Shown here: positions 9,211-53,628 of the stretch, piece after piece
Layout: every line of letters begins with the position of its first letter
Numbering within the stretch: the stretch's first letter is position 1
NCBI GenBank assembly: GCA_050250895.1
Contig: JBFWNU010000001.1
Location: 648,008-712,007, forward strand
Direction of reading: 5' to 3'
Source: Vulcanimicrobiota bacterium
GTDB lineage: Bacteria > Vulcanimicrobiota > Xenobia > Xenobiales > JADMJV01
DNA length: 64,000 nt
Made by a program: the position numbers and the translations under genes
The notes under the pieces: generated by a model
The model's input: the letters and a program-made list of their open reading frames with translations, nothing else
Told to the model about the DNA's origin: nothing
The model's database searches: none

Positions 9211-9274
9211 CTTTCCGCCGTTTCCAAGGAAATGGTTAGCTGATTCTGGAACACTATAGTACTCGGTTCCCTCC

Positions 9275-12686: not shown

Positions 12687-12857
12687 GCTTGCATTCTAAA
12701 GGCTCTGACCTGCCCAACGGCTGCCCAGATGGTGTCGACGTGAACAGCTCATTGCCGAAGCGTTAACTGGGGCGGGAAGAAGAGTGGGCGAGGGCGAAGG
12801 AATAAGATGTACGACTTGACGACGGGACTAGCCAAGTGATTCACAGGGGAGGTAGTT

Positions 12858-34678: not shown

Positions 34679-34694
34679 TTCCCGTAGCCGGCGA

Positions 34695-34712
34695 GCCCGC
34701 CTCAAGGCGGGC
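34695..34712. terminator. GC hairpin downstream of the giant TPM-like gene
   Basis: GCCCGCC-TCAA-GGCGGGC. No U-tract. Confidence 0.35.
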
Positions 34713-34725
34713 CCGCCTGGGTCTG

Positions 34726-37632: not shown

Positions 37633-37709
37633 CCTTTTCTTCCTCCATTAGAAAAGAAGACGAGCCTGGTGCTGTGTGTGTGGTGACCTGAGAAATGGCA
37701 GTGGTCAGA

Positions 37710-37737
37710 CGGTAGGCCCGGCGCCCCGGGCCTACCG
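37710..37737. terminator. Perfect 12-bp inverted repeat (terminator-like or GTAG-type REP-like)
   Basis: CGGTAGGCCCGG-CGCC-CCGGGCCTACCG, between the two paralogues. Confidence 0.55.
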
Positions 37738-37750
37738 CAAAACGCGCGTG

Positions 37751-40642
37751 TTACCAGCTAGAACCGCTGGAGCCGCCGCTCCAACTGCCGCCGCTCGAGC
37801 CGCCGCTGGAACCCGAGCCAGAGCCCCAACTGCTTCCGCTCGAGCCGCTGTCGCTCGAGCCAGAGCCCCAGCTGCTACCGCTCGAGCCCCAGCTGCTGCT
37901 ACTGCTGTCGTCATTGTCGCTCGACGACGAGCCGCCGCCCCAGTTCCAAGAACTGGAACTAGAACCCGAGCTAGACGAGCCGCTGTCGCTGCTGCCCCAA
38001 TTCCAGGAACTGGAGCTTGAACTCGAGCTGCCGCTAGAGTAGTTGTCATCGCGGTCCCAGCCTCCCGAGCTGTAGCTGTCACGATAACGCCGGGCCTCTT
38101 CGGCACGCTGGCGGGCCTGCTCTTCCACGGCGGCCACCACGTTGTCGTGGCGCTCCTTGAGGGCATCATTGGCCGAGCGAATGCCCGCTTTGGCTTCGTT
38201 GTTCTTGGCGCGGGCCTCTTGCACGTGCTCTTCACCCTGGTCGACCTGATTCTGGCGCAGCGAATTCTCGGCCGCCGCCAGAGCCTGCTGACCCTGGCCC
38301 AGAGCCGTCTCGGCCGGCTGAATCTCGGAACTGGCCATGGTGGTGGTGACACTGTTGCCCACATCGACCAGTTGGCTGCCTTTGGCCGTATTGATGTCAG
38401 CGGCGGTGTTCTCGAGACTGGCGCGAACCGAGGCGATGCTGTCGAAGCAAGCCTGGAAGCGGTCGCCGTTGCCGGATGCTTTAGCCCGTTCCAGAGCCTC
38501 GAGCAAGGCCAGCCGGTCGAGCAATTCCTGTGCGTTGTCGCGCTTTTCGGCCATGGCCAGCAAAATCTCGTAGAGCGACTTTTCGTATTCGCGCGAGGCG
38601 CCTCGCTTGAGCAGCTCTTCTTTCCAGCTGCGGGCCTGGTCCGAGCCCTCCATGACAGCCCGCGAGGGGTCGCTCAGACTAAAGCGCACGCGCTCGTCCT
38701 CTTTGGTCAACAGGGCCAGCGCTTTGTTGTAGTTGTGAGGCGAAACCCAGTTGAGAGCCGACTTAGAATCCACCCGTTCCGAGGCCTCGGCCAGCACCTT
38801 CTCGGCCCCGCCCATCAAGGTCAGGGCCGCACCCACATTCTCCGAGAGAGAAGCGACCAGGTCGCCCATCTCGCCCGAATAGTTCGACAGTTTGTGAACG
38901 TCCACTTCGTCGAGCAGGTCCATCAGAGCCTTCGTCTTAGCCGCGATCTCGGTATTGGCGTCCTCGAGGGCCAGTCTTGCCTCTTTACGGCGCGACGAAG
39001 CCCGATAGTTGGCCACCAGACCCAGCACCGCGATGCCCGCAGCCACACCCCCGATGGCCAGTTTGCGCATGGTCTCGGCCTGGTGGACCCGATTCTCGGC
39101 GCCCTCGATTACCTCGACCGCGGTGTCGGCGTCGTGGGCGGCGTGTTGTTGGCTGGTATAGAAGCCCGCATCCTTGGATTGGAGTTTGGCCTGGAAGTCG
39201 GCGTAGCTGCTCCTGGCCTGCTCGAGGACCCCCCGCAAGGGGGTTTGTTCGGACTCGGGCAGTCCCGCCAACTTCGCCTCGGCCTGAGCGAGTTGCCCGG
39301 CGATCCGTTCAGAAGCGGCCGGCGCCTGCTCGAAGCGAGCCATCAGTTCTTGCTGGGTGCGAATGGCATCGAGCACCTCCTGAGCCGTGTCGCGGGCCAC
39401 CTGGAACTGACCGGCGGCCGCGTTCTTTTCGGCCTGGTCCAGAGTGGCGCTCCAGCCCGAGAGATTGGGGCTGGCCAAGCCGCCGTCGCCATGTTCGACC
39501 CGGAAGCTATTGACCGACTCGCGCATGCCCTCGAGGGCGGTGCGGGCGCTGGCCACTGTGCTGAGAGCCTGGCTGCGAATGCGCTCGAAGTTGGCCATGG
39601 CGGTCTGGGCCCCGGTCACGCCCGAGAGCACGCCTTCGGCCAAATTCTTGGCCGTCTGGTAGTCTCTGCGCTCGAGCGCGTTCCGGGCTCGAGCCAGGTC
39701 CTGCTCCCAACTGCCCACGTCGACCGGCACCGAGGTGCTGCCGTTCTTCTCGCGAAACTCTTGGACCTGTTGGCGCCCTTCGGCCACCGCCGACTCCGCC
39801 CGACGGACGGCCGAGTTGGCTCCGTCGGCGAGTCCGACCACATAGTTGTGGACGGTGGTATTGATGCGGTTGGCCACGGCGCCGATGCCCGAAGCCAGGT
39901 CGCCCTGACCGACGTTGGCCTTGAAGATGTCCACCAGCGTGTTGCTGCGCGGTCCGGCGAAATTCTCTTCACCCACCCCGAGCTGGTCAGGCAGGCCCTC
40001 GGCCCGCATGTAGATTTTCTTGCCCTGGCTGCTGTCCATGTAGACGAAGAAGACGACTCCATCTTTCTGGCCGGTAGTCTCGTCGACGACCGAATGGAAG
40101 GCACCGCTTTCGCCGATGCCATGGTTGGCCGTGCCGTGATAGCCTTCGAGCTGGCCGGCGTTGTCGACCACTACAACATAGATGTTGGGATGGCGAGCCA
40201 GCATTTGCTCGAGGCGATGCTCCTGATCGGCGCTGACCGGACGCCCCTGGATATAGAGTTGGCGTTCGGCCGTGAAACGGTTGACCAGATCCTGGGCGCT
40301 GGTGATACGCACCGGGTCGGTGTTACGGGCGGCCGGAACCGAGATGGACTGGGCCATCGCCGGTGACGAGGCGCCCAATAGTCCGGCTCCGGCACCCACG
40401 GCCGAAAGCGCCAGGGCGCTCAGGGTAGCAACTTTACGCCAGCCTGACTCTTGCCTTTCAGGAGCTTCGGGAGCGGCCGGCTCCAGCAGTTCGGGGGTCG
40501 GTTGGATCAGGCCGAGGCTTTGGGCTCCTGGCGGGGCCTGACGGTCCAGACCGTCGATGGGGTTGGCGTGGGGGATGCTCGCCCGAGGCGCGCTATAAAC
40601 AACAGGCCGCTTGGCCTGGCCGGGAATGCCGATCGAAGACAT
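37751..40642 (-). CDS. Large TPM(DUF477)-like membrane/coiled-coil protein with Gly/Ser/Trp tail, paralogue B
   Basis: Colinear paralogue of 34726-37632. ATG at 40642 follows an AGGAGGAG RBS. Confidence 0.7.
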   Translation of the reverse strand: MSSIGIPGQAKRPVVYSAPRASIPHANPIDGLDRQAPPGAQSLGLIQPTPELLEPAAPEAPERQESGWRKVATLSALALSAVGAGAGLLGASSPAMAQSISVPAARNTDPVRITSAQDLVNRFTAERQLYIQGRPVSADQEHRLEQMLARHPNIYVVVVDNAGQLEGYHGTANHGIGESGAFHSVVDETTGQKDGVVFFVYMDSSQGKKIYMRAEGLPDQLGVGEENFAGPRSNTLVDIFKANVGQGDLASGIGAVANRINTTVHNYVVGLADGANSAVRRAESAVAEGRQQVQEFREKNGSTSVPVDVGSWEQDLARARNALERRDYQTAKNLAEGVLSGVTGAQTAMANFERIRSQALSTVASARTALEGMRESVNSFRVEHGDGGLASPNLSGWSATLDQAEKNAAAGQFQVARDTAQEVLDAIRTQQELMARFEQAPAASERIAGQLAQAEAKLAGLPESEQTPLRGVLEQARSSYADFQAKLQSKDAGFYTSQQHAAHDADTAVEVIEGAENRVHQAETMRKLAIGGVAAGIAVLGLVANYRASSRRKEARLALEDANTEIAAKTKALMDLLDEVDVHKLSNYSGEMGDLVASLSENVGAALTLMGGAEKVLAEASERVDSKSALNWVSPHNYNKALALLTKEDERVRFSLSDPSRAVMEGSDQARSWKEELLKRGASREYEKSLYEILLAMAEKRDNAQELLDRLALLEALERAKASGNGDRFQACFDSIASVRASLENTAADINTAKGSQLVDVGNSVTTTMASSEIQPAETALGQGQQALAAAENSLRQNQVDQGEEHVQEARAKNNEAKAGIRSANDALKERHDNVVAAVEEQARQRAEEARRYRDSYSSGGWDRDDNYSSGSSSSSSSSWNWGSSDSGSSSSGSSSSSWNWGGGSSSSDNDDSSSSSWGSSGSSWGSGSSDSGSSGSSWGSGSGSSGGSSGGSWSGGSSGSSW

Positions 40643-40763
40643 TTTTCTCCTCCTGTAGAAAGGAGAGAGCACAACGAGAGACCTGGCATGAGAGTAGGCC
40701 GCGGCCCTGAAAGTATCCTTACTTCTCGGGGGGTTTTGACTGCAGGAAGAGGAATGGTCGCCC

Positions 40764-41126
40764 ATGTCCAATCGAGGCGGATACCACCAGCGCGCGCTCA
40801 ACCTCATCGACCAGACCGCTCGCGCCCTGCGGGGCCAACTCGACGTTGACCACGTGCTCGACGAGATCGAAGCCCTCAGCGAGGACATTCACGCCGCCTT
40901 TACGGTCTTGCCAGAACCGCCTGATAGCCTGCAAGCTCTGGTGGGCGAACTCGATACTGCCTTCGCCGAAGCCGGCGAGTTGCATCTCGAAGGGTTGACG
41001 CTGGCCGCGGAGGCTCTGGAACAGGGCGAGCCCGCTCAGCTCGAGCGAGCTCGCCAACTGGTCGAAAAAGGCGGCCTGCGCATCGTGGCCGCTGAAGAGC
41101 AGGCCCACAAACGGCTGCTGGGCTAA
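40764..41126 (+). CDS. Hypothetical helical protein
   Basis: ORF with a GAGGA RBS and typical codon usage. Confidence 0.6.
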   Translation: MSNRGGYHQRALNLIDQTARALRGQLDVDHVLDEIEALSEDIHAAFTVLPEPPDSLQALVGELDTAFAEAGELHLEGLTLAAEALEQGEPAQLERARQLVEKGGLRIVAAEEQAHKRLLG

Positions 41127-42946
41127 CCCGCCTCGAAGGCCAGGGTCGAGAAGCTGGCCTGGAACTCGGACAGCGGCATCTGGACGAGACCGTCGTTGCT
41201 GCCGTCGTGGTCGGCCGGATCGCGCCCCCAGGGGTTGCGTACCGTAACCATCTGGGTGACCGGGTCGTAGGCCATCACCGCATAGGCGTGGCTGGTGACC
41301 ATCTGATTGCCGTTGGCGTCGTTGTTTAGAACCCCGGCCGTGACCATCTTGCCTTCAGCCAGCGTCGCCTCGAGGATATCGCCCACCACGGCCGGGTCGC
41401 GGCCGTCGATGTTGGAGTTGAGGTTGTAGTGATTGCCGTGAGCGCCGAGACCGTGCATCGACACCGTCATGGCCCGATGTCCGGTGAACAACTCGATACC
41501 AGCCGCGGCCGGGCCGCCTTCGCTGATCTCCTGGCCCATTTGCTGTGAGCGCTGGGCGGCGGCCTTCTCGAGCAGGGCGGCCCAATCGCCGTTCGAGGTC
41601 GCGTAGATACCGCGCTCGGCTTCGGTCAAACCGGCCACGACCTGGGTGTTGCCGTCGGGGAAGGTAACCTGGTAGCCACCTCCCTTGAGGGGGGTAAGCA
41701 TGCGCTCGATCTGGTCGGGAGTTAGCCGCGACATGGCCGAGAGCACCCAGCAGTCACCGGCCAGCCCCTGCGAGATCGAGTTGGGATCGGGCCGTCCCTG
41801 GAATAGCCGCTCTTCGGCGCCGGCCCGCTGGCGGGTTCGCTGCCAGCCCGACTGCATGCGCTTGTGGGCCGTCGTCCACTGCTGGTCACCAGCCCCTCGA
41901 GGGCCGGCCTCGTAGGCCTGCAGATCGGCCCGGGACAGTCCTGGGCCACCACCCTCGTTGTTCAAGCCGGCCAGCTCTTCGAACGCATTGAGAGCCACCG
42001 CGGCGAGCTCGGCCTCGGTGCCGCGATTGCCAGGCTCACTCAAGACCCGGTCCATCTCCTGACGCGAGACCCGACCGTCATGGTCGAGATCCCACTTGTC
42101 CAGCCGCGAACTCAGGGCCTGACTCAAGTTGGCGTCAGCCTGGGTGGGCTCTTGAGCCGGGCCCTGGCCGGGCCGAAAGTCCCCCTGGCTGTGGTAGCGC
42201 CGCACCGCCTCGCGTTCTTCTTCATAGACCATGCCGTGTTGGTCGAGCACGGCCTCGCCATAGGCGGCTTTGTCGTTTTGACGCAGACCCTCGATAGCCT
42301 GTCTCTGGTTGATTTGGCCGTTGCGCACGCCATCGAAGATCTGCCCGGCCCGCAGGTAATTCTGCATGGAAGTCTCGTCACTGGTGGCCAATTCCGGCTG
42401 GTAGTCGCCCACCATGAACTGGTTGCGCAGCCCCTGATACTGGCGATAACGCTGGTCAAGGAAAGCCGCTTCCTGAGGTGAGTAGCCTCCCTCGCGAAAG
42501 AGAGCGCGCAAGCGCTGGGTCTCTCCCGAGAAAGCGTCGAGATACTGAAACTCGCTCCGGTTGATCATGCCCGAGCGAACACCTTGAAGGTCGTTAGAGC
42601 GAGCCAGACCGGTCTGCATTTCGTCATACTGAAAAGACGAGCGGGTGGCCCCCGGACCCATCAAGGGGCCACCCTGGTAGTCGCCCATCATGAACTGCCC
42701 CGCCAGCATTCGCCACTGTTGCATCCGCTGGTCGAGATAGGCGGCTTCGATTGGCGAGTAGCCGCCGGCTCTTAGCTGTTGGGCCAGGAGCCCTGCCTGC
42801 TGATGGTAGAGGTCGAGGGCGACAAACTGGTTACGGTTGATGAGCCCGCTGGCGACACCTTGAACCAGGACGTCGCTGTTGGCGCGGAACTCGAGGGAAA
42901 AGGAGGAAGTGGATGAGCGTGGTTGGACGCTACCAAAATCGAACAA
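41123..42946 (-). CDS. Calpain-like (C2) cysteine protease with EF-hand and N-terminal repeats
   Basis: QGLAGDCWVLS (Cys), SHAYAV (His), RNPWG (Asn). EF-hand DLDHDGRVSRQE. Confidence 0.85.
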   Translation of the reverse strand: MFDFGSVQPRSSTSSFSLEFRANSDVLVQGVASGLINRNQFVALDLYHQQAGLLAQQLRAGGYSPIEAAYLDQRMQQWRMLAGQFMMGDYQGGPLMGPGATRSSFQYDEMQTGLARSNDLQGVRSGMINRSEFQYLDAFSGETQRLRALFREGGYSPQEAAFLDQRYRQYQGLRNQFMVGDYQPELATSDETSMQNYLRAGQIFDGVRNGQINQRQAIEGLRQNDKAAYGEAVLDQHGMVYEEEREAVRRYHSQGDFRPGQGPAQEPTQADANLSQALSSRLDKWDLDHDGRVSRQEMDRVLSEPGNRGTEAELAAVALNAFEELAGLNNEGGGPGLSRADLQAYEAGPRGAGDQQWTTAHKRMQSGWQRTRQRAGAEERLFQGRPDPNSISQGLAGDCWVLSAMSRLTPDQIERMLTPLKGGGYQVTFPDGNTQVVAGLTEAERGIYATSNGDWAALLEKAAAQRSQQMGQEISEGGPAAAGIELFTGHRAMTVSMHGLGAHGNHYNLNSNIDGRDPAVVGDILEATLAEGKMVTAGVLNNDANGNQMVTSHAYAVMAYDPVTQMVTVRNPWGRDPADHDGSNDGLVQMPLSEFQASFSTLAFEAG

Positions 42947-43348
42947 GAAACCGTTCCCCTATGTTTTCTGGCCGACAGACTCTCGCGGAACCTGTCTAAC
43001 CAAATTTCGCACACACACTCACACTGCCAGAAAAAAATACTGACAGTAGTGTTCAATGACACATATCGATGTCTGTAATGTGGGGGGGGTCGCGATCCGT
43101 CGAGGGGGATCAGGGCGTGGTCGTGGAGATGAGCAATCTGGCCTCTTATCGGGCTCTTTGTGCAGTTCTTCCGGGGCTAGAATAGCACACCCGTCAACCC
43201 GAAGTCGTTACGAAGAGGTAACAAAGTCCTGAAACTGTAACAGAATTGTTGCAAGGAAGTTTCCATGCGGACAATCCGGACCACTGCTGTCTATTTCACG
43301 CCCGGCTGGCGATCTGTCTAGGGGGGCAAGACAAGAGCGGCGAACTGG

Positions 43349-44422
43349 GTGGCTGTGTCCGACATCAGAGTGCCGCGAGAAGACGCTAACGACGACAGCG
43401 CCGTGCTGGTCAAGTGGCTGGTAGAAGACGGCCAGGAGGTCCAGGCGGGTCAGACCATCTGTGAAATGGAGACCACCAAAACGGTCTTCGCCGTGGTCGC
43501 CCCCGCCACGGGTCGCGTTCAGAGACTGGTGGAGCAGGGACAGGAGATCGAGGTTGGCGCTCCCCTGGCCCGTTTGCTGCAGGCCGGTGAGAGCCCTCAG
43601 GAAGAGACAGTTCAACGCGACAGCGGTGGCCCTCGCCTGACCCGAGAGGCCGAGCGCTACGCAGCCGAGCACCAGCTCGAGGTGAGCGCCCTCAAGAAGC
43701 GGGGTATCGTCACTCTGACCGATCTGCAAGCCATGGTCGCTCCGGCCCGGCCCAACGTCTGGGATAGGCTGCCCAGGCAAAAGCGCGTGCTCTTGATGGG
43801 GGCCGGCAGCGTGGCCTGGCAAGCCGCCGATATCTTGTTGCACGACTACTCCCGCACCGTCATCGGATGCCTGGACGACTCGCCCTCGACCTGGGGCCGG
43901 GACGTGCTGGGAGCCCCCGTCCTGGGGGCGATCTCCGACCTGGAACGCCTGTGGCAAGAGCAAAAGTTCGACGAGGCGGTGGTGGCCATGGGCAACAACC
44001 GCATCGACCTGCGTCGGGGATGGTACGAGCGTTGCCGGGCCCTGGAAATACCACTGGCCAACGTCATCGACCCCAGCGCTCGCCTCAACTCGGGCGTAGA
44101 ACTGGGTCAGGGCAATCTACTGCTGAGTTTCGTCCATGTCGGTGTGGGGGCGTGTCTGGGTGACAACAACTTCATCGCTGCCCACAGCAGCATCGACCAC
44201 CACTGCCAGCTGGGCAGCCACGTCTTCATGGGTCCCGGTTGCCTGCTCTCGGGCCTGGTGACGGTAGGTGACGAGACGCTCTTTGGTTCGGGAGTGGTGG
44301 TGCAGCCCTCGCTGCGGATTGGCACCGGTTGTCGCCTCTCTTCGGGAGCGGTAGTCATTCGCGATGTACCCGACCGTCACGCCGTCAAGTGCAGCTTCGA
44401 GCAGACGGTCACCCCCATCTGA
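43349..44422 (+). CDS. Lipoyl domain - peripheral subunit-binding domain - PglD/NeuD-type LbH acetyltransferase fusion
   Basis: EMETTK lipoyl site, LTREAERYA...GIVTLTDL, LMGAGSVA/CLDD, NVIDPSA, IDHHC and hexapeptide repeats. Confidence 0.85.
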   Translation: MAVSDIRVPREDANDDSAVLVKWLVEDGQEVQAGQTICEMETTKTVFAVVAPATGRVQRLVEQGQEIEVGAPLARLLQAGESPQEETVQRDSGGPRLTREAERYAAEHQLEVSALKKRGIVTLTDLQAMVAPARPNVWDRLPRQKRVLLMGAGSVAWQAADILLHDYSRTVIGCLDDSPSTWGRDVLGAPVLGAISDLERLWQEQKFDEAVVAMGNNRIDLRRGWYERCRALEIPLANVIDPSARLNSGVELGQGNLLLSFVHVGVGACLGDNNFIAAHSSIDHHCQLGSHVFMGPGCLLSGLVTVGDETLFGSGVVVQPSLRIGTGCRLSSGAVVIRDVPDRHAVKCSFEQTVTPI

Positions 44423-46359
44423 TGGAATTGGCCAGCCTCTACTACGAGATGCTGCGCATCCGGCGTTTTGAGGAGCGTATCCTGGAGCTGTTCTCGCAGG
44501 GCGAACTGCATGGCACGACCCACGCCTATATCGGTCAGGAAGCCATCGCGGTGGGAGTGCTCAGCCACCTCGAGCCGACGGACCGGGTGGTCTCGAACCA
44601 CCGCTGCCACGGACACTTCTTGATGCATCGCCGCGACATGACGGCGCTTTTAGCCGAACTGATGGGCAAGGCCAACGGTGTCTGCTCAGGTCGAGGGGGC
44701 AGCCAGCATCTATGCCGCGACGGTTTCTTCACCAACGGAGTGCAGGGCGGAACCTTGAGCCTGGCGGTGGGCCTGGCGCTGGCCACCCGTTTTTCCCCCG
44801 GGGGCCTGGTGGCGGTGTTCATGGGTGACGGCACCCTGGGCGAAGGGCAGACCTATGAGGCCTTCAATCTGGCTTCGCTGTGGAATCTGCCGCTGCTGTT
44901 CGTGATCGAGAACAACTTCTATTCTCAGAGCACCCCCAGCAATCTTCAGGTGGCCGGCTCGATCGCTGCCCGCCCCCGCGCCTTTGGCATCGAGACCCTC
45001 GAGGTGACCAGCAATCGTTTGCAGGATTGCTGGCGGGTGGCCGGCCAGGCGGTAGCCGACCTGCGCGCCGACGGCAAGCCACGGGCGCTGGTTTTTGACA
45101 CCTTTCGCCTTTGCTCTCACTCCAAAAGCGACGACGGTCGTCCCGAGAGCGTCATCGAGCCGTGGCGCGAGCGCGACCCGCTGTTGGCGGTGGCCCGAGA
45201 ACTGGCAGCGCCCCAAGCCAGCGAGCTCAGCCAGCGCGTCGAGGCCGAACTCGAGGCCGCGGTGGCCGCCAGTTTGACCGCCCCCATCGCCGACCAGGCG
45301 GTGCTGCCGGCCCTGCCCTGGCCCGAGCCCACCCCGCGCCAACCCTCGACGGGCCGGGTGGTCGAGGTGCTCAACGCGGCCCTGCACGAATTGATGGCCG
45401 AGGACGAACGGGTGATCCTGCTGGGCGAGGACCTGCTCGACCCTTACGGCGGCGCCTTCAAGGCTACTCGCGGGCTGTCCACCGCCTACCCGGCCCGGGT
45501 TCTGGCCACACCGCTGTCAGAGACCGGCTTCACCGGCGCCGCCGCCGGCCTGGCCCTGGCGGGCATGCGACCGATCGTCGAGATCATGTTCGGCGACTTC
45601 GTTACGCTTTGCGTCGACCCGCTGGTCAACTATGTGAGCAAGTACCGCGAGATGTATGACGATCAGGTTCGCTGCCCCCTGGTGGTGCGCACCCCGATGG
45701 GTGGCCGGCGAGGCTATGGCCCCACCCATAGCCAATCCTTGGAGCGGTTGTTCCTCGGTATCCCCGAACTGCGGCTGGTGGCTTTGAGCGCGCTGCACGA
45801 CCCTCGAGCCCTGCTGCGCACGGCCGTGGCCGATCTCGCTCCCGTGCTGTTCATCGAAAACAAACTGCTCTACACCCGGCGCCCCAGAGTCGCCGACGCT
45901 GAAGGATGGCTCGACGATCTGGCCTGGCGCGAAAGCGATCACCCCTATCCCACCGTGACCCTCTCGCCCACCGGCTTCCAACCGGGTCAGGTGAGCCTCA
46001 TCACCTACGGCGGAATGGGCGAGATGACCATGGAGGCGGCGGTGCGCCTGCTGGTCGAGCACGAGATCCGGGCCGAAGTGGTGGTGGTGAGCTGCCTGCA
46101 ACCGCTGGAACTGGGGCCCATCGAAGCGAGCCTGCAGCGCTGCGGCGGTAGAGCCGTGACCGTCGAAGAGGGCCCGGCCAGCGGTGGCTGGGGTAGCGAG
46201 GTGCTGGCCAGCTGCGCCGAAGCCGGTTGCTTGCGGGCCGGCCAACGGGTGGGCGCGGCCAACATTCCCATTCCGTCGGCCCGCGCCCTGGAAGACCAGG
46301 TACTGCCCTCGCTCGAACAGATCGTGGCTGCGGCCCGGTCGGTGGTGAGCCGGCGTTGA
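44422..46359 (+). CDS. Fused 2-oxoacid/acetoin dehydrogenase E1 alpha+beta (ThDP-dependent)
   Basis: HAYIGQEA, HRCHGH, GDG...ENN ThDP motif and HSKSD. Beta part LLGED, TPLSE and GPTHSQ. Confidence 0.92.
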   Translation: MELASLYYEMLRIRRFEERILELFSQGELHGTTHAYIGQEAIAVGVLSHLEPTDRVVSNHRCHGHFLMHRRDMTALLAELMGKANGVCSGRGGSQHLCRDGFFTNGVQGGTLSLAVGLALATRFSPGGLVAVFMGDGTLGEGQTYEAFNLASLWNLPLLFVIENNFYSQSTPSNLQVAGSIAARPRAFGIETLEVTSNRLQDCWRVAGQAVADLRADGKPRALVFDTFRLCSHSKSDDGRPESVIEPWRERDPLLAVARELAAPQASELSQRVEAELEAAVAASLTAPIADQAVLPALPWPEPTPRQPSTGRVVEVLNAALHELMAEDERVILLGEDLLDPYGGAFKATRGLSTAYPARVLATPLSETGFTGAAAGLALAGMRPIVEIMFGDFVTLCVDPLVNYVSKYREMYDDQVRCPLVVRTPMGGRRGYGPTHSQSLERLFLGIPELRLVALSALHDPRALLRTAVADLAPVLFIENKLLYTRRPRVADAEGWLDDLAWRESDHPYPTVTLSPTGFQPGQVSLITYGGMGEMTMEAAVRLLVEHEIRAEVVVVSCLQPLELGPIEASLQRCGGRAVTVEEGPASGGWGSEVLASCAEAGCLRAGQRVGAANIPIPSARALEDQVLPSLEQIVAAARSVVSRR

Positions 46360-47825
46360 CCAACCGCCTGCGGGTCTGGCTCGCGCTGGCTACCGGTCTG
46401 GCCATGGCCGCCTTCACCCTGGTGACCTTGCCGCCGGCCGACACCTGGTGGCATCTGGCCGCCGGCCGTTACATTCTCGAGCATGGCCTGCCGGCCACCG
46501 ATCCCTTCTCCTTTACCGCTGGCGACCACCCCTGGGTCAACCATGAGTGGCTGGTCACGGTGTGGTTCGAACTGCTCTATCGAGCCGGCGGCCTGACCCT
46601 GCTCTACGCCATGCGCAGCCTGGTGGTGGTCGTCGCTTTCGTGGGCCTGCCGCTGGTGTGGGCCTGGCGTCGCCAGAGCGAGCCGCTGGGGTGGCCGATG
46701 CTGGTGGTGCTCGCCTGGGCCTGCCAAACCATGTTTTTTATCGACCTGCGGGCCTATCTGGTCAGCTATCTGCTCTTGTCACTCACCTTTCTCTGCATTC
46801 TGTTCTATCGCGAGAGCGAGAAGATCGCCTGGCTGCTGGGCCCCGTGCTGGCCCTACCGCTCTGGGCCAACTGCCACGGAGCGTTCGTGCTGGGGGCGGC
46901 GGCGCTGGGCAGCGCCGCCCTCGGGTGCTGGCTCGAGGGTCGCCGGCCCCAGGCCGGCTGGCTGGCGGGCGGAGCCTTGCTCGGCTATCTGCTGACGGCC
47001 CTGAACCCCTATGGAACCTCGATCTGGATGTTCCCCTTCAGCCTGCTGGGCCGCGACGCCTTTCGATTGGGACTCAACGAGTGGGCCGCCCCCGACCTGT
47101 CGGGAGCCCAGCTGGCCTATTTGCTGCTGACTCTGGTGGCAGCCGTCCTGGTCCTGTGGCGAGGTCGGGAGGACCGAGTGCTATGCTTGTGGGCCCTGCT
47201 CTTTCTGGCTGCCGGGCTCAAGACCTGGCGCCACGAGCCTCTGGCCGGGCTGGCTCTGGCCTACATCCTGCCCGGCCTGGTGCCCGAGATCCGCTGGCCC
47301 TCGCGCTGGATAGTCGGTCCGTTGCTCAGTCTAGCAGCGGGCCTGCTGCTATGGCAGCGGGCCAGCGGTGGAGTCGAGCGGCTGACCGGCCTGCACACCT
47401 TCTTTCCTGTGCACGCTTGCGACTGGATCGAGGCCAATCCCGGTTTGCCGGGACGAATTCTCAATCCCTACGAGTGGGGAGGCTACCTGCTCTGGAGGCT
47501 CGGCCCGCAACGAAAAATCTTTTTCGACGGCCGAGCCCACACCGTTTATCCCGAGCAGGTCTATATCGACGGTCTTTTCACCCAGTTCGGCGAGCCCTGG
47601 TCTCGCCTGCTCGAACGCGAGGGGTTCGCCCCGCCCAGCGGCGACCTCGGCGCCTTGCTGGATCGCTACCAGGTAGAGATGGTGCTGGTCAACCGGTTGC
47701 AGGGCAACCTGGCCACCCGCTTGCCCCCGGGCTGGTATCTGGCCTATGAAGACAGCAATTGCCTGGCCTTTTTGCGCAATACCCCCGAAAACCGCTCGCG
47801 CACGTTGCTGGTTCCGCCGCGCTAG
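46356..47825 (+). CDS. GT-C-like polytopic membrane protein (putative glycosyltransferase)
   Basis: Motifs DTWWHLAAG, WVNHEW, LWANCHG, NEW, YEWGGYL and FFDGRA. TTG start overlaps the E1 stop. Confidence 0.65.
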   Translation: MTNRLRVWLALATGLAMAAFTLVTLPPADTWWHLAAGRYILEHGLPATDPFSFTAGDHPWVNHEWLVTVWFELLYRAGGLTLLYAMRSLVVVVAFVGLPLVWAWRRQSEPLGWPMLVVLAWACQTMFFIDLRAYLVSYLLLSLTFLCILFYRESEKIAWLLGPVLALPLWANCHGAFVLGAAALGSAALGCWLEGRRPQAGWLAGGALLGYLLTALNPYGTSIWMFPFSLLGRDAFRLGLNEWAAPDLSGAQLAYLLLTLVAAVLVLWRGREDRVLCLWALLFLAAGLKTWRHEPLAGLALAYILPGLVPEIRWPSRWIVGPLLSLAAGLLLWQRASGGVERLTGLHTFFPVHACDWIEANPGLPGRILNPYEWGGYLLWRLGPQRKIFFDGRAHTVYPEQVYIDGLFTQFGEPWSRLLEREGFAPPSGDLGALLDRYQVEMVLVNRLQGNLATRLPPGWYLAYEDSNCLAFLRNTPENRSRTLLVPPR

Positions 47826-50392
47826 CGGGGGGTGCCCAGCAGCTTCTGGCCGAGCTCGATCGGCTCGAGCGGCTCGGACACGGCGTAGCCCTGAGCAAAG
47901 TCAAAGCCCAGCCTCATCAGATTGCGATAATCGAACTTCTCTTGCACCGACTTGATGGTGGCGGCAATACCCCGGTCTTTGAGCAAAGACCGCACCAGGG
48001 GCATCAGGGCCTCAGCCATCGAAGCCTCGATCTTGACCATCTTGATGCCCGGTCGGGCCAGAGTGGTCAAACGCGACTCGCGAAAGCCGAAGTCGTCCAG
48101 GCAGATCTTGAAGCCTTCGCGCTCAAGCCCAGAGATGATAGCGTTCCAGCGGTCGGTGCCTCGCACCTGGCCACCCTCTCGCACCTCGAGCATCACCTGG
48201 TCGCGGCTCACGCCGTGGCGGGCCAACACCTGAGAGAGCAACATTCCCAGGTCGGGCTCGAGCAACTGCCGGTGAGAGAGATTGATCGAGACTACCAATC
48301 CGAGTCGCTGTTGGCGCCATTGCAAGATCTGGGCAGCCACCATGTCGAACATGCGGTGACCGATCTCGATGAGCACGCCGGAGCGTTCGGCCGTCTCGAG
48401 GAAATTCTCTGGCCCCAGGACGCCCATCTGGCGATGACGCCAGCGCAGCAGCGCCTCGACCTGGACCACTTTGCGTCCAGCCAGCTGAATGACTGGCTGA
48501 TAGACCACGAAGAATTCGTTCTTCTCGACAGCCGTGCGCAGCTGCCCTTCGAGGCTTTGCTGATGTTGGCGCCAGCGCTTGAATTCTCCGGTGAAAACAC
48601 AGATGCGGCCGCGCCCCTCGTCCTTGGCCTGGTACATGGCCGTTTCGGCCTGGTGAAGCAGGGCCTCGCCCGAATCAGCATCGGAAGGATAGAGACTGAC
48701 GCCGATGCTGGCTCCCAGGTGGAAACGCTGACCCTGCACCGTGAAAGGATAACTGAGGGCTTCGAGAATGCGCTCGGCCGTCCCCATCACCAGCGGACCC
48801 GGATTGCGTCCCTCGATCTCCGAGAGCAGCAAAGCGAATTCGTCCTCGCCTCGACGGGCCAGCACGTCGGAGTTGCGGACCAACTCTTTGAGGCGAGTCG
48901 CCACCGCTCGCAACAACTCATTGCCGGCCTGGTGTCCCATGGTTTCGTTGACCACCCGAAAGTGATCGAGATCCATGACCATCAAAGCCACCACTCGATT
49001 GTAACGGCTGGCCTGTTGCAGTGCGAACTCGAGATACTTCTTGAGGATATTGAGATTGGGCAAGCCGGTGAGACTGTCTTCAAAAGCCAATCGCTGGGTT
49101 TCTTTGGCGTTGGCCGTGGCCCCCCGCTCCTGCTTTAGTTCCATCACGGTGGCGTCGAGTTTCTTCTCGGTCTCGGTGAGCCGCGATTGCAGCCAGTTGA
49201 CCTGGGTGCGGGCTTGCTCGAGCATGGTCTCGGCTTTCTTGGTGCGCACTCCGAGTTCGTCTCCCGAGCCGGTCGAGAGCGAGGCGGTGGCCGTCCGCAG
49301 CTGCTCGCGCAAGCTGTCGTTCTGGCGCTGGAGCTGCTCGAGAGCGGCCGGGTCGACGCCGGACTCGTGCTTGAGGGCGAGCGTCTGTTGCAACTCGTCG
49401 CGCAACCCCTCGAGCCCTTCCAGGCGGGCTTTGAGCACTTCTTCGCGTTCGCGGGCGGTCTCGCGCTCCTGGCGCATCACCCGCAGCGACTCGTTCAATT
49501 CTTCGTTGAGGCCCAGCAACGATTGCACCCGGCGCTCGGCCCTGGCCACCTCGGCCCGCTGTTTTTGCAGCTCTTGCTCGAGCCCTTCGTCGGCCGGAGC
49601 AGAAGTAGCTTCCTGGGCAGCTGCCAAAAGGGCGGTTAGTCGCACCACTTCACGCTCGAGCCCGGCCGCCTTCTCGGTCGCCTCTTCCAGCCTGGGGGCC
49701 AGTTCTTCAGCCCGCCTGGCCTCTTCTAGCTCGACCCTGGCCAGGCGCAGCTCTTCTTCGAGGTCGGTCACCAGCTCGGCCGGAATGGATTGTTCGAGTT
49801 CGCCCCTCAAGTGGTCGACCATGGCCTCGGCTCGAGCCAGGTCGGCCTCCAGGCGCTCTACGGCGGGATCGGTAAGAGGTTCGGCCTGGGCCCTGGCCTT
49901 CCACTCATCACGCTCTTCAAGGGCCTTTTCGAGCTTCTTCTCGAGCCTGGCCAGGTCGGCCGAACGATCGATGGCCGGCTCGGGTTGCTGCTCGAGTTGG
50001 TCCTCGAGCTTTTGATTCTTGTTTTTCGAGCGAGCTAACTTAGACAGAGCCTGCTGCAATTGGCGCTCGGCATCGCGCTGGGCCGACTCGGCCTGACGCT
50101 TCTTGCGAGCCGTCTGGCGCTGGGTCCGCTGCAGGGCCGCCAGCTTCTCGCGCAACTGCTCGACTTCACCCTCGAGGGGGTTCAGGGTTACGGCCAATTC
50201 GAGTCGAGCGGGTTGGTTTTGCCATTGGCAGGGAGTCGCTTTGACCGGGGGCTCGAAACTGGTCTCGGCGGCCCGGTTGGCATACAGCAGGGCCCCATCT
50301 TCGGCCACCACCCGAAGCGGACTGGGCAGGTCATCTAGAAGCTTTTGTAGTTCTCCGGTGCGAGGACGAGGGTGCTTGCGCCGTGGGGCCAT
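47822..50392 (-). CDS. Coiled-coil GGDEF-EAL protein
   Basis: DSLTGLPN, DLDHFRVVN, RGEDEF, YQP, EALLR and DDFG, with about 370 aa of heptad repeats. Confidence 0.9.
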   Translation of the reverse strand: MAPRRKHPRPRTGELQKLLDDLPSPLRVVAEDGALLYANRAAETSFEPPVKATPCQWQNQPARLELAVTLNPLEGEVEQLREKLAALQRTQRQTARKKRQAESAQRDAERQLQQALSKLARSKNKNQKLEDQLEQQPEPAIDRSADLARLEKKLEKALEERDEWKARAQAEPLTDPAVERLEADLARAEAMVDHLRGELEQSIPAELVTDLEEELRLARVELEEARRAEELAPRLEEATEKAAGLEREVVRLTALLAAAQEATSAPADEGLEQELQKQRAEVARAERRVQSLLGLNEELNESLRVMRQERETAREREEVLKARLEGLEGLRDELQQTLALKHESGVDPAALEQLQRQNDSLREQLRTATASLSTGSGDELGVRTKKAETMLEQARTQVNWLQSRLTETEKKLDATVMELKQERGATANAKETQRLAFEDSLTGLPNLNILKKYLEFALQQASRYNRVVALMVMDLDHFRVVNETMGHQAGNELLRAVATRLKELVRNSDVLARRGEDEFALLLSEIEGRNPGPLVMGTAERILEALSYPFTVQGQRFHLGASIGVSLYPSDADSGEALLHQAETAMYQAKDEGRGRICVFTGEFKRWRQHQQSLEGQLRTAVEKNEFFVVYQPVIQLAGRKVVQVEALLRWRHRQMGVLGPENFLETAERSGVLIEIGHRMFDMVAAQILQWRQQRLGLVVSINLSHRQLLEPDLGMLLSQVLARHGVSRDQVMLEVREGGQVRGTDRWNAIISGLEREGFKICLDDFGFRESRLTTLARPGIKMVKIEASMAEALMPLVRSLLKDRGIAATIKSVQEKFDYRNLMRLGFDFAQGYAVSEPLEPIELGQKLLGTPR

Positions 50393-50407: not shown

Positions 50408-52297
50408 CTATGTCCGCACAACCCTTTTGTCGTCGACTCTTTGGGTGAATCCGGTCAGATCAAAATACTCTAGCACCGGAATGATATATTTGCGGGTGGT
50501 GTCGAGCGCCGTCCGGGCTTCGGAGGCGGTGAAGCCATCGCCCAGTTCTCGCAAGGCCTGGCGAGCCGCCTCCAGCGTCTCTTCGAGGAAATACATTCCC
50601 TCGGCCACCTTCTTGACCGCCTGGGTTTCGATCAGAAAGCCAGCCACGACGTTCCACATCCTGGGGGGTAGGCCGGCTTGCTTTTCCAGCTCTTTCCAAT
50701 CGGGCGGGGCGCAACCGCCCGACCGCAATAGCTCGACCACGCGGTCACAAGCCTTTCGCTGCTCCGGGTCAAGCACGGCCTCGTGACCAGCCAGGGACAA
50801 CAGGGCCTGACGCTCCTGCAAACGCCCCCGGGCCAGACCATCGGCCAGCACGGCCTGGGCCAGTTGCGGCTTGTCGCTATTGAGCAACTTGAGCAACTCT
50901 TCCTTACGCCAGCCCACCCGCCAGGGCGCGGCCTCTTGCAACCGTTCGAGCACCGACTCCAGGCGAGCGCTCAAAGCCTGAGCAGCCGGCCCACTGGCAT
51001 ACCACTTGCCGAGCCGGGCCACCGCCCCCTCGGCCAGCAGGCGTTGCACCAGCTCGTCGAAGGTGGCCTCGTCGAGCTGCAGCTCCTGGGCCAGCGCCTG
51101 AGCCGTGCGGGTCCCGCCGGCGGCCGACTCGAGCACGGCCAAGAGACCGCCTTCGGTGCCGCCTTGCTCGCGGTCTTTGAGCCGGTTGAGCAGCTTAGGG
51201 TCGCTGCGCCGACGATAGGGAGCCGAATAGGGGTCGAGCACGGTCCCGCCCCCCACCGTAAAGCTCGAGGTGAACTCGCGCAAGATGTAGCGGTCTTGCC
51301 GCAACACCACGGTGGGTTCCTCGAGACGAATCTGGACCAGACCACTGCGGCCGGCCTCGAGACGGTCCTGCTCGAGCAGATAGACCCGCCCGATGCACTC
51401 CTGGGTCCCGGCGTAGAAGCGCACCGGGGCCCGGTGCTTGAGGGCCCGAGGCACCGAGGCCAGCACCTCGAGGCGAGCATCGATACAGGTCGTGGCCCGC
51501 ATCAAGCCGGGAGGAGCCAGTACCTGTCCACGGGCCAGGCTGCCGGGCTCGACCCCCGAGAAGTTGACGGCCACGCGCTGGCCGGCCAGCGCCTGCTCGA
51601 CTTTGGCCCCATGAACCTGCAACCCCCGAATGCGCGCCTCGATACCGGCCGGCAAGATCTCGACCCGGTCGCCCACATTGAGGGTGCCGCTCCAGAGCGA
51701 GCCGGTGACCACGGTACCAAAGCCAGATTTGAGAAATACCCGGTCCACCGGCAGCCGGAAGGGCGCATCGACCGAGCGAGGCGCCAGTCCGGCCAGCCGC
51801 TCGGCCAGCACCTTCTTGAGCTCGTCCATGCCACGGCCGGTGCGGGCTGATACGCGCACCACCGGGGCCTGGTGCAAGAAGGTCGGGGCCAGAGCCTGGG
51901 CCAGCTCTTCCTCCACCAACTCGAGGAACTCTTCCTCGGCCAGATCGACCTTGGTCAGCGCGACCACCCCGGCCCGCGTCTTGAGCAGGTCCAGGATCTC
52001 GACATGCTCGGTGGTCTGGGGCATGACGCTTTCCTGGGCGTCGACTACCAGCAGTCCGAGGTCGTAACCACCCACCCCGGCCAGCATGTTCTTGAGAAAG
52101 CGTTCATGACCGGGCACGTCCACGATCCCGGCCGTCACCCCCCGGTCAAGCTCGAGGGAGGCAAAGCCCAGATCGATCGACAGCCCGCGGGCTTGCTCTT
52201 CGGGCAACCGATCGGTCTCGGTGCCGGTGAGAGCCCGAATGAGCGTGCTCTTGCCGTGGTCAACGTGACCAGCCGTGCCTACAATGTAGTGAGCCAT
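50408..52297 (-). CDS. selB: Selenocysteine-specific elongation factor
   Basis: GTAGHVDHGKS and DVPGHERF, plus C-terminal winged helices (TTRKYIIPVLEYFD). Confidence 0.97.
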   Translation of the reverse strand: MAHYIVGTAGHVDHGKSTLIRALTGTETDRLPEEQARGLSIDLGFASLELDRGVTAGIVDVPGHERFLKNMLAGVGGYDLGLLVVDAQESVMPQTTEHVEILDLLKTRAGVVALTKVDLAEEEFLELVEEELAQALAPTFLHQAPVVRVSARTGRGMDELKKVLAERLAGLAPRSVDAPFRLPVDRVFLKSGFGTVVTGSLWSGTLNVGDRVEILPAGIEARIRGLQVHGAKVEQALAGQRVAVNFSGVEPGSLARGQVLAPPGLMRATTCIDARLEVLASVPRALKHRAPVRFYAGTQECIGRVYLLEQDRLEAGRSGLVQIRLEEPTVVLRQDRYILREFTSSFTVGGGTVLDPYSAPYRRRSDPKLLNRLKDREQGGTEGGLLAVLESAAGGTRTAQALAQELQLDEATFDELVQRLLAEGAVARLGKWYASGPAAQALSARLESVLERLQEAAPWRVGWRKEELLKLLNSDKPQLAQAVLADGLARGRLQERQALLSLAGHEAVLDPEQRKACDRVVELLRSGGCAPPDWKELEKQAGLPPRMWNVVAGFLIETQAVKKVAEGMYFLEETLEAARQALRELGDGFTASEARTALDTTRKYIIPVLEYFDLTGFTQRVDDKRVVRT

Positions 52298-53628
52298 CGA
52301 AAGGCCTCCTCGATATGGTCCTCGTCCCCGGCCAGCAAAGTCCGCGGGTCGAGCAACACGGCGCCTTTGGCCCGGCGGGCGACCACCGGCGGGCGCGCTC
52401 TTCTCAAACCGTCAAGCAGTTCATCTTCGGAGCGGGTGTGGGGGCGAACCTCGACCAGCCAGGTGGGGAGCTCTTGACCGGGCAAACTGCCGCCCCCGAC
52501 GCTCGAGCCGCCTTCCACCACCGCCACGGTGGCCGTCTCGGACACGATCGATTCGAGCCGGTGGGCCAGCCCCTCGGCCCGCTGGCGCAGCTGGTCAGGG
52601 GTCGCCTTGAGCATGGCCCACACCGGCAGACTCTCGAGGGCGCCCAGATGGGCCCGCAAGGTGCCTTCCAAAGCCGCATACACCAGCTTATCCACCCGCA
52701 GCGCCCGCATCAGGGGATTGGCGGCCAGCTGCTTGACCCAGGTCGCCCGGCCCACGACGATGCCGGCCTGAGGCCCCCCCAGCAGCTTATCGCCTGAAAA
52801 CGCCACCAGGTCGAAATCCAACGAACCGCTCACGGTCGGCTCATCGGGCCAAAGCGGATGCATCAGCCCCGAACCCAGATCGAGACAGGTGGGGATCTTG
52901 CGCTCGCGGCCCAGGGCCGTGAGCACGCCCGGGTCGACCGACTCGGTGAAGCCCACCACTTTGAAGTTCGAGGAGTGGGTCGACAGCAGCAAGCCCGTCT
53001 CGTCGGTGATCGCCGAGGAATAGTCGGCTAAGCGCGTTTTGTTGGTGGTGCCCACTTCAACCAGTCGGGCTCCGGCCCGGGCCAGGATATCAGGGATGCG
53101 AAAGCTGCCTCCAATCTCGATCAACTCGCCGCGACTGACGATCACCTCTTTGCCCCGGGCCAGGGTGTCGAGAATCAACACCATGGCAGCCGCGCAATTA
53201 TTGACCACCAGCGCGTCTTCAGCCCCGGTCAGACGAGTCAGATAAGACTTGACGAGACTGTCGCGCTTGCCTCTGCCCCCGCTCTCGAGCGAAAACTCGA
53301 GGTTGCAGTAGCCACTGCAGGTCTCGACCACGTGCTCGAGGGCCTGGGCGGAAAGCGGGGCCCTGCCCAGGTTGGTGTGCAACACGACGCCGGTAGCGTT
53401 AATGATTTTCTGCAGCCGGACCTCGAGCCAGACGGCCAGCCGCTCCATCACCCACTCGGCCTCGGTTCCCGGCTCGGGAAAATCGCGGATCGAGCGAAGT
53501 TGGTCGGCGGCCAACCGCAACCCCTCGACGACCATGGGCCGGCCGTGGCGGGCGCACCAGTCCGCTGCCCGGGGATGCCCGAGCAGAGACTCGACACTGG
53601 GAATGCGCCGCAGATTGTTCAAGGACAC
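52279..53628 (-). CDS. selA: L-seryl-tRNA(Sec) selenium transferase
   Basis: Motifs INATGVVLHTNLGRAPL, VVNNCAAA, EIGGSFRIP and FSGDKLLGGPQAG. Confidence 0.97.
   Translation of the reverse strand: MSLNNLRRIPSVESLLGHPRAADWCARHGRPMVVEGLRLAADQLRSIRDFPEPGTEAEWVMERLAVWLEVRLQKIINATGVVLHTNLGRAPLSAQALEHVVETCSGYCNLEFSLESGGRGKRDSLVKSYLTRLTGAEDALVVNNCAAAMVLILDTLARGKEVIVSRGELIEIGGSFRIPDILARAGARLVEVGTTNKTRLADYSSAITDETGLLLSTHSSNFKVVGFTESVDPGVLTALGRERKIPTCLDLGSGLMHPLWPDEPTVSGSLDFDLVAFSGDKLLGGPQAGIVVGRATWVKQLAANPLMRALRVDKLVYAALEGTLRAHLGALESLPVWAMLKATPDQLRQRAEGLAHRLESIVSETATVAVVEGGSSVGGGSLPGQELPTWLVEVRPHTRSEDELLDGLRRARPPVVARRAKGAVLLDPRTLLAGDEDHIEEAFRWLTTL

Follow-up and report, generated by a model that had tools for sequence, protein, structure and literature searches.

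A lipoyl-bearing fusion with a NeuD/PglB/VioB-type catalytic part pairs with a 2-oxoacid dehydrogenase-type E1 in a widespread two-gene module

Lipoyl domains carry their modified lysine at a beta-hairpin turn, and in the E2 components of the pyruvate (PDH), branched-chain 2-oxoacid (BCKDH) and acetoin dehydrogenases a domain of this kind is followed by a linker, a docking domain, a second linker and a catalytic part. Here we describe a locus that shares this succession, with a conserved lysine and a putative docking domain. It lies in a 64-kb stretch of the genome of a Vulcanimicrobiota bacterium (assembly GCA_050250895.1, contig JBFWNU010000001.1, positions 648,008 to 712,007; hereafter the window, meaning the whole stretch that was analysed), where open reading frame (ORF) and domain analysis places three genes in the same orientation at 43349-47825 on the + strand. 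Gene 1 encodes the E2-like fusion protein and, as in 2-oxoacid dehydrogenases, an E1 with alpha and beta parts and an intact thiamine diphosphate (ThDP) motif is encoded next to it, by gene 2. In contrast to E2, the fusion has a PglD_N domain and a left-handed beta-helix in place of the CAT-like PF00198 domain, and, unlike in 2-oxoacid dehydrogenase complexes, no E3 accompanies the gene in 80 loci and the likely acceptor would be a sugar amine instead of coenzyme A (CoA). With the NeuD/PglB/VioB enzymes (Campylobacter jejuni PglD, Neisseria gonorrhoeae PglB-ATD 4m98, Caulobacter crescentus PerB 4ea7 and VioB 7txp) the fusion has in common a two-domain catalytic part with a conserved catalytic histidine, and many of its relatives adjoin DegT aminotransferases in amino-sugar pathways. 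Unlike these enzymes, it possesses a lipoyl arm, a putative docking domain and an E1 partner, belongs to a separate clade with a long stem, scores below the cut-off of the family, and probably would use its own acyl-lipoyl arm as the donor instead of acetyl-CoA. Our analysis revealed that the fusion and the E1 constitute a real and widespread two-gene module. Judged by its sequence, this module is a 2-oxoacid dehydrogenase scaffold with a swapped catalytic core, and it suggests an undescribed route by which an amino sugar is acylated straight from a 2-oxoacid.

Both halves of such a route have counterparts in described systems. LpxA and LpxD are left-handed beta-helix enzymes that transfer an acyl group from a thioester on the phosphopantetheine arm of acyl carrier protein (ACP) to a UDP-sugar; the fusion is proposed to resemble them in taking its acyl group from a protein-borne arm, and to differ in that the arm would be a dihydrolipoyl-lysine on the same polypeptide and not a phosphopantetheine on a separate ACP. 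On the E1 side, two reports (PMC6335953, PMC5384830) describe cassettes that lie in biosynthetic clusters without an E3 of their own: the QncN/L/M homologs (SclQ1-4 of the scleric acid cluster, of the glycolicacyl type), in which an E1-type ThDP enzyme and a lipoyl carrier deliver an acyl group to a non-CoA acceptor, and an E1 plus E2-T-C fusion in the pepteridine pathway of Photorhabdus, for which the authors assume that the host supplies the E3. Judged by these descriptions, the Qnc/SclQ and pepteridine systems share with our module an E1 and a lipoyl carrier serving an acceptor other than free CoA. They have, however, retained the usual acyltransferase domain of E2, and the recipient of their acyl group is a carrier protein, whereas the fusion module, unlike the Qnc cassette, is without a 2-oxoacid_dh domain and has no evident carrier protein. 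PMC4875605, which uses 'lipoyl' loosely for fatty acylation, was set aside as irrelevant. No published description of the fusion was found in the full-text literature searched, a collection that leaves out most subscription journals. E1-like genes have been mentioned in a Legionella lipopolysaccharide cluster.

Domain plan of the fusion protein and its E1 partner

An initial annotation, made from the letters of the DNA without database searches, had read gene 1 as a lipoyl domain that continues into a PglD/NeuD-type Rossmann domain and a left-handed beta-helix acyltransferase instead of an E2 catalytic domain, and this architecture was recovered with Pfam, NCBIfam and AlphaFold2 (domain boundaries and Pfam scores are listed in Table 1). 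The NCBIfam model for NeuD/PglB/VioB proteins, TIGR03570, matches residues 147-346 (2.5e-43, 148.1 bits), the order of PglD_N and Hexapep agrees with the architecture of these proteins, and about 200 residues align to 4m98 and 4ea7, while neither Pfam nor NCBIfam gave a match to the E2 catalytic domain 2-oxoacid_dh (PF00198) in gene 1. Among solved proteins, the C-terminal half comes closest in sequence to the PglB acetyltransferase domain from Neisseria (4m98, 1e-22), PerB (4ea7, 8e-22) and VioB (7txp), and the beta-helix part also produced weak sequence matches to LpxA and LpxD. In the AlphaFold2 model, for which 20 relatives were aligned and which has a mean predicted local distance difference test (pLDDT) value of 79, the chain runs from a beta-barrel (residues 1-77, pLDDT ~90) through a small two-helix domain (95-131), set between disordered stretches at 84-93 and 133-140, into a Rossmann-like part (145-231) and a beta-helix (240-330). 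The modelled chain has the beads-on-a-string layout of an E2, except for its last bead, which is of another kind.

The residues on which lipoyl-dependent acyl transfer would depend are conserved. The putative lipoyl-lysine, K44 (codon 43478-43480, motif ETTK), is located in the hairpin turn between strands 36-41 and 46-50, which is modelled with a pLDDT of ~90 or more. In the alignment of the 20 relatives, which range from 29 to 86% identity, K44 is invariant together with E41 and T42, with T98 and A101 of the small domain, and with H284, the putative catalytic histidine (codon 44198-44200). H284 aligns with a PerB residue that is histidine in 4ea7 and asparagine in the variant entry 4eaa, a position that we take to be that of the catalytic base (PerB His141, PglD His125). 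PglD_N, presumably the nucleotide-sugar-binding half as in the solved relatives, is matched by Pfam in 19 of the 20 relatives. The fusion is present as a single copy in the source genome, and its reading frame offers an alternative start at GTG 43355; the MSDIRVP start of the closest relative fits this second GTG.

For the small domain between the two linkers, the initial annotation had suggested a resemblance to E1/E3-binding segments. Here the sequence evidence was weak: Pfam E3_binding matched 5/20 relatives, with a best E-value of 0.0023, and did not match the window's own protein, and in a phmmer search the E3-binding protein 1zy8_K matched gene 1 residues 16-139. The fold, with helices at 99-107 and 123-130 in the AlphaFold2 model, and a modelled complex speak in favour of the suggestion. 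When gene 1 residues 92-135 were modelled with two copies of the E1 beta part (residues 305-645), the complex reached a score of 0.63, compared with 0.00 for the best control, contacts agreed by at least 96% between runs, and the pLDDT of the partner was at least 77. The modelled interface brings E1 residues 494-550 against gene 1 residues 96-100 and 118-123. In this assay the mark is reached by 116 of 157 solved complexes and by 2 of 215 mismatched pairs; because solved complexes of E1 with a peripheral subunit-binding domain (PSBD) exist, passing it shows likeness to them and is no proof that this particular copy binds.

Gene 2 had been proposed to be a fused E1 alpha/beta, and indeed all three E1 domains were found in its single chain (Pfam E1_dh 1.9e-44, Transket_pyr 1.3e-28 and Transketolase_C 3.6e-15). 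Among solved structures it is closest to the alpha and beta chains of heterotetrameric-type E1s, from PDH and other 2-oxoacid enzymes. The ThDP motif, GDG135-137...ENN163-165, is intact, and G135, D136, G137, N165 (within ENN163-165), H233, E367 and H436 are invariant in 15 E1s of the module. Of the two conserved histidines, H233 is embedded in CSHSKSDD and H436 in PTHSQS, in line with an HS motif shared by the solved E1 beta chains; these two presumably serve to acylate the lipoyl group reductively. The protein stays below the NCBIfam equivalog cut-offs both for PDH E1 alpha (228.4 vs 393.85) and for PDH E1 beta (189.7 vs 321).

Conservation of the module and loss of the lipoyl arm

A protein search listing 120 clusters showed that the lipoyl part is present in 93 of the 119 usable ones, whose members are named in databases as 'biotin/lipoyl-containing protein', 'hypothetical' or 'sugar O-acyltransferase (NeuD family)'. 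A scan over contigs representing one genome per species returned the 80 loci mentioned above. A full-length fusion is encoded at 67 of them, and conservation of its neighbourhood, which the initial annotation had named as a check, was clearly observed, with an E1 adjacent in 63 of the 67. In 61 loci the E1 lies within 400 bp of the fusion gene and in two more (L048, L072) within 1 kb. It is found upstream in 55 cases and downstream in 6, and is fused in 18 and split in 43, the Eremiobacterota clade having a fused E1 downstream of the fusion gene. That adjacency was kept despite these rearrangements argues for a functional connection and not for the inheritance of a single arrangement. The remaining loci comprise six in which the fusion is cut at a contig end and five remote homologs with the beta-helix part only (L076-L080), none of which gave an E1 match, and two with the beta-helix part only (L073 and L075), in which an E1 is located 650-727 bp upstream. 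In the latter two, a diverged arm or the gene for a separate carrier could be hidden in this gap.

According to the record titles, loci with a full-length fusion come from more than 12 phyla; the titles span Eremiobacterota/Vulcanimicrobiota, UBP9, Kapaibacteriota, Bacteroidota, Planctomycetota, Bdellovibrionota, Nitrospinota, Acidobacteriota, Actinomycetota, Chloroflexota, Verrucomicrobiota, Armatimonadota and Alpha-, Beta- and Gammaproteobacteria. Cultured organisms are represented by Catellatospora sichuanensis (Actinomycetota) and Aliidiomarina celeris (Proteobacteria), which makes the mechanism open to direct testing.

Relatives that have dispensed with the arm provide a natural comparison. 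A match at E <= 1e-20 was obtained in 34 of 151 genomes of the window's phylum, and we inspected the 19 best of these loci beyond the window's own (L094-L112). Eight encode a full-length fusion, each with an E1 directly adjoining, and in 11 genomes, belonging to two genera, only the region corresponding to residues ~120-357 is present, at ~50-61% identity and without the arm. A six-frame search with a lipoyl plus PSBD profile matched all eight full-length loci and none of the 11 arm-less ones, and no E1 was detected in the 1.5-kb flanks of the latter. Genome-wide searches likewise gave no E1-family match in any of the seven arm-less genomes searched (95-98% complete), while all three positive controls yielded both the cognate E1 beside the fusion, at 58-69% identity, and housekeeping paralogs.

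A tree with Shimodaira-Hasegawa-like approximate likelihood ratio (SH-aLRT) support was computed from the catalytic parts of 119 homologs in the database. In it the catalytic domains of the fusion family group in a single clade (SH-aLRT 100), which a stem of 1.57 changes per site separates from ordinary PglD-like enzymes. An arm-less clade of five proteins, two of them from Candidatus Bruticola, is nested within the fusion clade (SH-aLRT 100), from which we conclude that the arm was lost secondarily; the other arm-less rows in the fusion clade are mostly fragments. We infer that this clade represents the same lineage as the 11 arm-less genomes. LipA was kept in 4/4 arm-less genomes checked, and we therefore rejected the possibility that the arm disappeared through loss of lipoate metabolism; its loss appears to be tied to that of the E1 and not to lipoate. 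Two arm-less relatives from different genera (L113, genome G019, 5626-7720; L114, genome G064, 6708-12738) share a conserved envelope-type neighbourhood with the same gene order, namely PglD-like, FabA-like dehydratase, Met_gamma_lyase-family protein, Asp/Glu racemase, BacA and AnmK. A separate lipoyl-bearing PglD-like protein, P0109 (365 aa, 13 member sequences), is placed on a long branch outside the main fusion clade and could be a second independent fusion or a misplacement in the tree.

Proposed acyl transfer and gene neighbourhoods

Considering these data together, we lean, with slightly better than even confidence, towards the view that genes 1 and 2 form a cut-down 2-oxoacid dehydrogenase-type machine that yields an N-acylated amino sugar and not acyl-CoA. 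K44 would be lipoylated by the housekeeping lipoylation system; the source genome encodes LipA, E3 and five Pyr_redox_dim proteins elsewhere. The docking domain would hold the E1 on a core that may be a trimer, as in solved enzymes of the PglD type. The E1 would decarboxylate a 2-oxoacid, or cleave a ketose in the manner of Qnc-type enzymes, and reductively acylate the lipoyl arm, and the acyl-dihydrolipoyl arm could then take the place of the pantetheine arm of acyl-CoA in the donor site of the beta-helix. His284 would activate the amine of the nucleoside diphosphate (NDP)-amino sugar for acyl transfer, and a housekeeping E3 encoded elsewhere would re-oxidise the arm. The acyl group may be acetyl, or a group that is scarce as a CoA ester, such as glycolyl or propionyl. 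The initial annotation had put forward the central idea, that the E1 loads the arm, from which the beta-helix domain transfers the acyl group to a sugar; this part gains good comparative support from the pairing with E1, the invariance of K44 and H284, the sugar-gene context and the absence of an E1 from the arm-less clade, whereas its extension to the membrane protein encoded by gene 3 does not (see below).

Neighbouring genes were counted from clustered ORFs of the 80 loci, called by a greedy longest-ORF procedure; since antisense shadow ORFs in high-GC loci (clusters 2, 3, 11 and 15) were ignored, the counts are lower bounds. The commonest neighbours were DegT/DnrJ/EryC1 aminotransferases and GFO_IDH_MocA oxidoreductases (19 loci each), followed by epimerases/dehydratases (17), LuxR-type response regulators (14), NTP_transferases (12), the initiating phosphoglycosyl transferase Bac_transf and aldo-keto reductases (11 each), SIS and 4HBT thioesterase proteins (9 each) and Fumble-like proteins (8). 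Close inspection of 16 loci showed that most are glycan clusters with Wzy, GT1/2/4 glycosyltransferases, UDP-sugar dehydrogenases and a flippase. Two of them, L066 and L071, contain a complete-looking set for a branched aminodeoxysugar in the order dehydratase, RmlC-like, C-methyltransferase, DegT, E1 alpha, E1 beta and fusion, so that the fusion occupies the N-acyltransferase slot after the aminotransferase. In Caldilineae-type Chloroflexota (L044, L046, L047, L049, L053, L061 and L067), genes for a Fumble-like protein, an aldo-keto reductase and a 4HBT thioesterase lie upstream of the E1 gene, which hints at a different acceptor or donor-supply route, and L013, L057 and L069 carry an enoyl-CoA hydratase gene.

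These latter neighbourhoods, of an acyl-CoA type, together with the lack of sugar genes in the window itself and a long family stem that permits a change of substrate, raise the question of whether, in the source genome and in lineages where the module sits outside glycan clusters, the acceptor is some amine or hydroxyl other than that of a nucleotide sugar, for instance on a small metabolite or a lipid-linked intermediate. We consider this unlikely, because PglD_N was kept in nearly all of the aligned relatives, the closest solved proteins (PglB-ATD, PerB and VioB) are without exception NDP-amino-sugar N-acetyltransferases, DegT and other sugar genes are the commonest recurring neighbours, and the source genome encodes at least four strong DegT proteins, on other contigs or far off.

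The gene sets of L066 and L071 allow another explanation, in which the E1 transfers a two-carbon unit onto a keto sugar and the fusion has an activity of its own. ThDP enzymes of the AviB1/AviB2 and YerE types act in branched-sugar pathways, E1-like pairs do occur in deoxysugar clusters, and the C-methyltransferase and dehydratase genes of these two loci are typical of branched deoxysugars. Such chemistry, however, needs neither a lipoyl arm nor a docking domain, yet both are invariant partners of the E1, and the residues aligned with the reductive-acylation histidines are conserved, which leaves formation of a carbon branch highly improbable.

The acyl group might also go where it goes in the classical complexes. 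The beta-helix would in that case be a non-homologous E2 that passes the acyl group from the arm to CoA, or an enzyme that uses acetyl-CoA, the arm then serving in regulation or redox chemistry. Binding of CoA thioesters is established for hexapeptide acyltransferases, and the arm-less relatives must operate without an E1. On the other hand, the strict coupling of the arm to the E1 speaks for the arm being the substrate of that enzyme, the acceptor-side domain and the catalytic histidine of amino-sugar N-acyltransferases are conserved, and the glycan-cluster context fits the slot of a sugar N-acyltransferase. Moreover, the source genome already encodes three ordinary E2s with adjacent E3s elsewhere. 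Collectively, we regard a substitute E2 of this kind as improbable.

Returning to transfer from the lipoyl arm to a sugar amine, several observations weigh against it. Lipoylation, acyl loading and acyl transfer are all steps that we infer from sequence, and the TIGR03570 score of gene 1 is lower than the curated cut-off of 160.8 bits. Besides gene 3, no glycan or sugar gene is present anywhere in the 64-kb window, and some lineages pair the module with an aldo-keto reductase, a thioesterase, a Fumble-like kinase or an enoyl-CoA hydratase instead of sugar genes. In four of the 67 full-length loci (L015, L022, L057 and L069), neither an E1 nor another ThDP enzyme was found in the fetched flanks, the rest of these genomes not having been searched. 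Three E3 queries from the source genome detected no E3 at any of the 80 loci, so that re-oxidation of the arm would depend on a housekeeping enzyme whose involvement we assume. Retention of LipA indicates that a lack of lipoate does not account for the missing arm, and acyl-CoA is presumably the donor in the arm-less clade; the family's donor site may thus still accept CoA esters, and a bypass of acyl-CoA is plausible and not established. With regard to a separate carrier, no ACP was present among the Pfam-scanned neighbours in the window, and no ACP-specific search was made in the related loci.

In its widest form, our proposal is that a lipoyl-armed trimeric sugar N-acyltransferase with a dedicated E1 makes N-acyl amino sugars, perhaps including glycolyl ones, from 2-oxoacids or ketoses without acyl-CoA, and that these decorate surface glycans in more than 12 phyla; we put this forward tentatively, with somewhat less than even confidence. 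If correct, it would add a new output to the 2-oxoacid dehydrogenase design, in which the lipoyl arm serves a sugar amine instead of CoA or a carrier protein, and would represent a biosynthetic role of lipoate that has not been described before as well as a new source of N-acyl diversity in bacterial surface glycans. With a beta-helix trimer in place of the E2 core, it would offer a clear example of domain swapping within a classic multienzyme complex, and a widespread, generically named family would be given a function.

The third gene and the surroundings of the locus

The three genes had been annotated as translationally coupled, and stop and start codons overlap at both junctions. At the first, the TGA of gene 1 and the ATG of gene 2 share one base (TGATG); at the second, the stop of gene 2 overlaps a TTG start of gene 3 (TTGA), which makes 46356 a likelier start than 46227 and corrects the annotation in this one respect. 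Given the TTGA overlap, genes 2 and 3 are predicted to be co-transcribed here, and they are probably translationally coupled. The operon promoter is presumably located in the intergenic region 5' of gene 1 (42947..43348), in which a consensus scan did not reveal a sigma-70-type site.

Gene 3 matches no Pfam or NCBIfam family. Its AlphaFold2 model, based on 33 relatives, is confident (mean pLDDT 95.1), and a Foldseek search of the PDB gave 25 matches at E <= 0.001, every one of them to a GT-C enzyme (STT3, AglB, PglB, AftA, DPY19 and ArnT), with matches just below this level of significance also being mostly GT-C (ALG9/12, AftD, AftB and Pmt4). The 'GT-C-like' label first given to the protein is therefore justified. 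With the GT-C enzymes (STT3/PglB/AglB, ArnT, AftA, DPY19 and ALG) it shares the membrane fold, with TM-scores mostly of 0.4-0.6 on query length, and its first loop has conserved acidic residues; it differs from the known members in having no family assignment and only 8-17% identity to solved enzymes. The acidic residues, D29 (DTWWH) and D49 (DPFSF), are nearly invariant in the 33 relatives and are candidate catalytic residues. Relatives of gene 3 derive mostly from the same phylum, and many have C-terminal TPR repeats that are missing from this copy. Two further paralogs are encoded in the same genome (G000:C1:532600-534021 and G000:C3:330655-332187). Gene 3 thus belongs to an unnamed GT-C family in its own right, which among the hits seen is largely confined to this phylum.

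In the initial annotation the three genes were a functional unit, with gene 3 transferring the modified sugar to a surface glycan, a scheme in which the acylated sugar would first be put on a polyprenyl carrier. The codon overlap of gene 3 with the E1 gene, the confident GT-C fold and the nearly invariant first-loop aspartates are in line with this idea, and a metagenome-assembled genome with 86-90% identity, the only possible repeat of the trio, may keep it, although its genes lie on two short contigs and it is too closely related and too fragmented to be counted. However, tblastn found no relative of gene 3 in the 80 related loci, and a profile built from its 33 relatives found no member of the family among their 3068 ORFs of at least 100 aa. 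In the same-genus relative L001 the E1 gene is followed by an opposite-strand gene for a soluble protein, and neither there nor in five other close loci does a polytopic membrane gene follow the E1. The existence of the two paralogs elsewhere in the genome points in the same direction, as does the window itself, in which no aminotransferase, polyprenyl-phosphate glycosyltransferase or flippase is encoded near the trio. Since the trio is not co-conserved, which the initial annotation had itself named as evidence against its proposal, the three-gene unit falls and the two-gene unit stands; joint action of all three genes now seems decidedly unlikely. As judged by comparison of the loci, gene 3 lies outside the conserved module; it looks like a chance, lineage-specific neighbour and is probably not tied mechanistically to the fusion and the E1.

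Table 1. Coordinates of the genes, domains and flanking features of the locus (positions in the window).
Feature	Position	Strand	Description
Gene 1	43349..44422	+	Lipoyl-PSBD-PglD_N-left-handed beta-helix fusion, 357 aa
Lipoyl domain	43349..43579	+	Gene 1 residues 1-77; Pfam Biotin_lipoyl 8-76, 1.3e-14
Small helical PSBD-type domain	43631..43741	+	Gene 1 residues 95-131; flanked by disordered linkers 84-93 and 133-140
PglD_N-type Rossmann-like domain	43781..44041	+	Gene 1 residues 145-231; Pfam PglD_N 146-228, 8.9e-8
Left-handed beta-helix acyltransferase domain	44066..44368	+	Gene 1 residues 240-340; Pfam Hexapep 271-336, 7.7e-15
Gene 2	44422..46359	+	Fused E1 alpha/beta, 645 aa; ThDP-dependent 2-oxoacid decarboxylase/dehydrogenase component
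Gene 3	46356..47825	+	GT-C-fold polytopic membrane protein, 489 aa; TTG start
Intergenic region 5' of gene 1	42947..43348	+	Gap of ~400 bp after the divergent calpain-like gene
Upstream neighbour	41123-42946	-	Calpain-like protease gene, divergent; 607 aa, calpain-family cysteine protease domain
Downstream neighbour	47822-50392	-	GGDEF-EAL gene, convergent

The trio is flanked by the genes for a calpain-like protease and a GGDEF-EAL protein, and no E3 gene is found next to it, in agreement with what had been noted from the sequence. Just 3' of the trio, at 50408-54560 (-), lies a cluster for the selenocysteine machinery comprising SelB (629 aa), SelA (465 aa) and a SelD-like protein of the AIR-synthase family (313 aa). 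On the other side, two very large ORFs of 968 and 1045 aa without a Pfam match (34726-40888, -) precede the calpain-like gene, and a gene for a Uma2-family putative endonuclease (33974-34759, -) adjoins one for a 444-aa protein (32643-33977, +) that combines an N-terminal GNAT domain with a long C-terminal part to which no domain was assigned.

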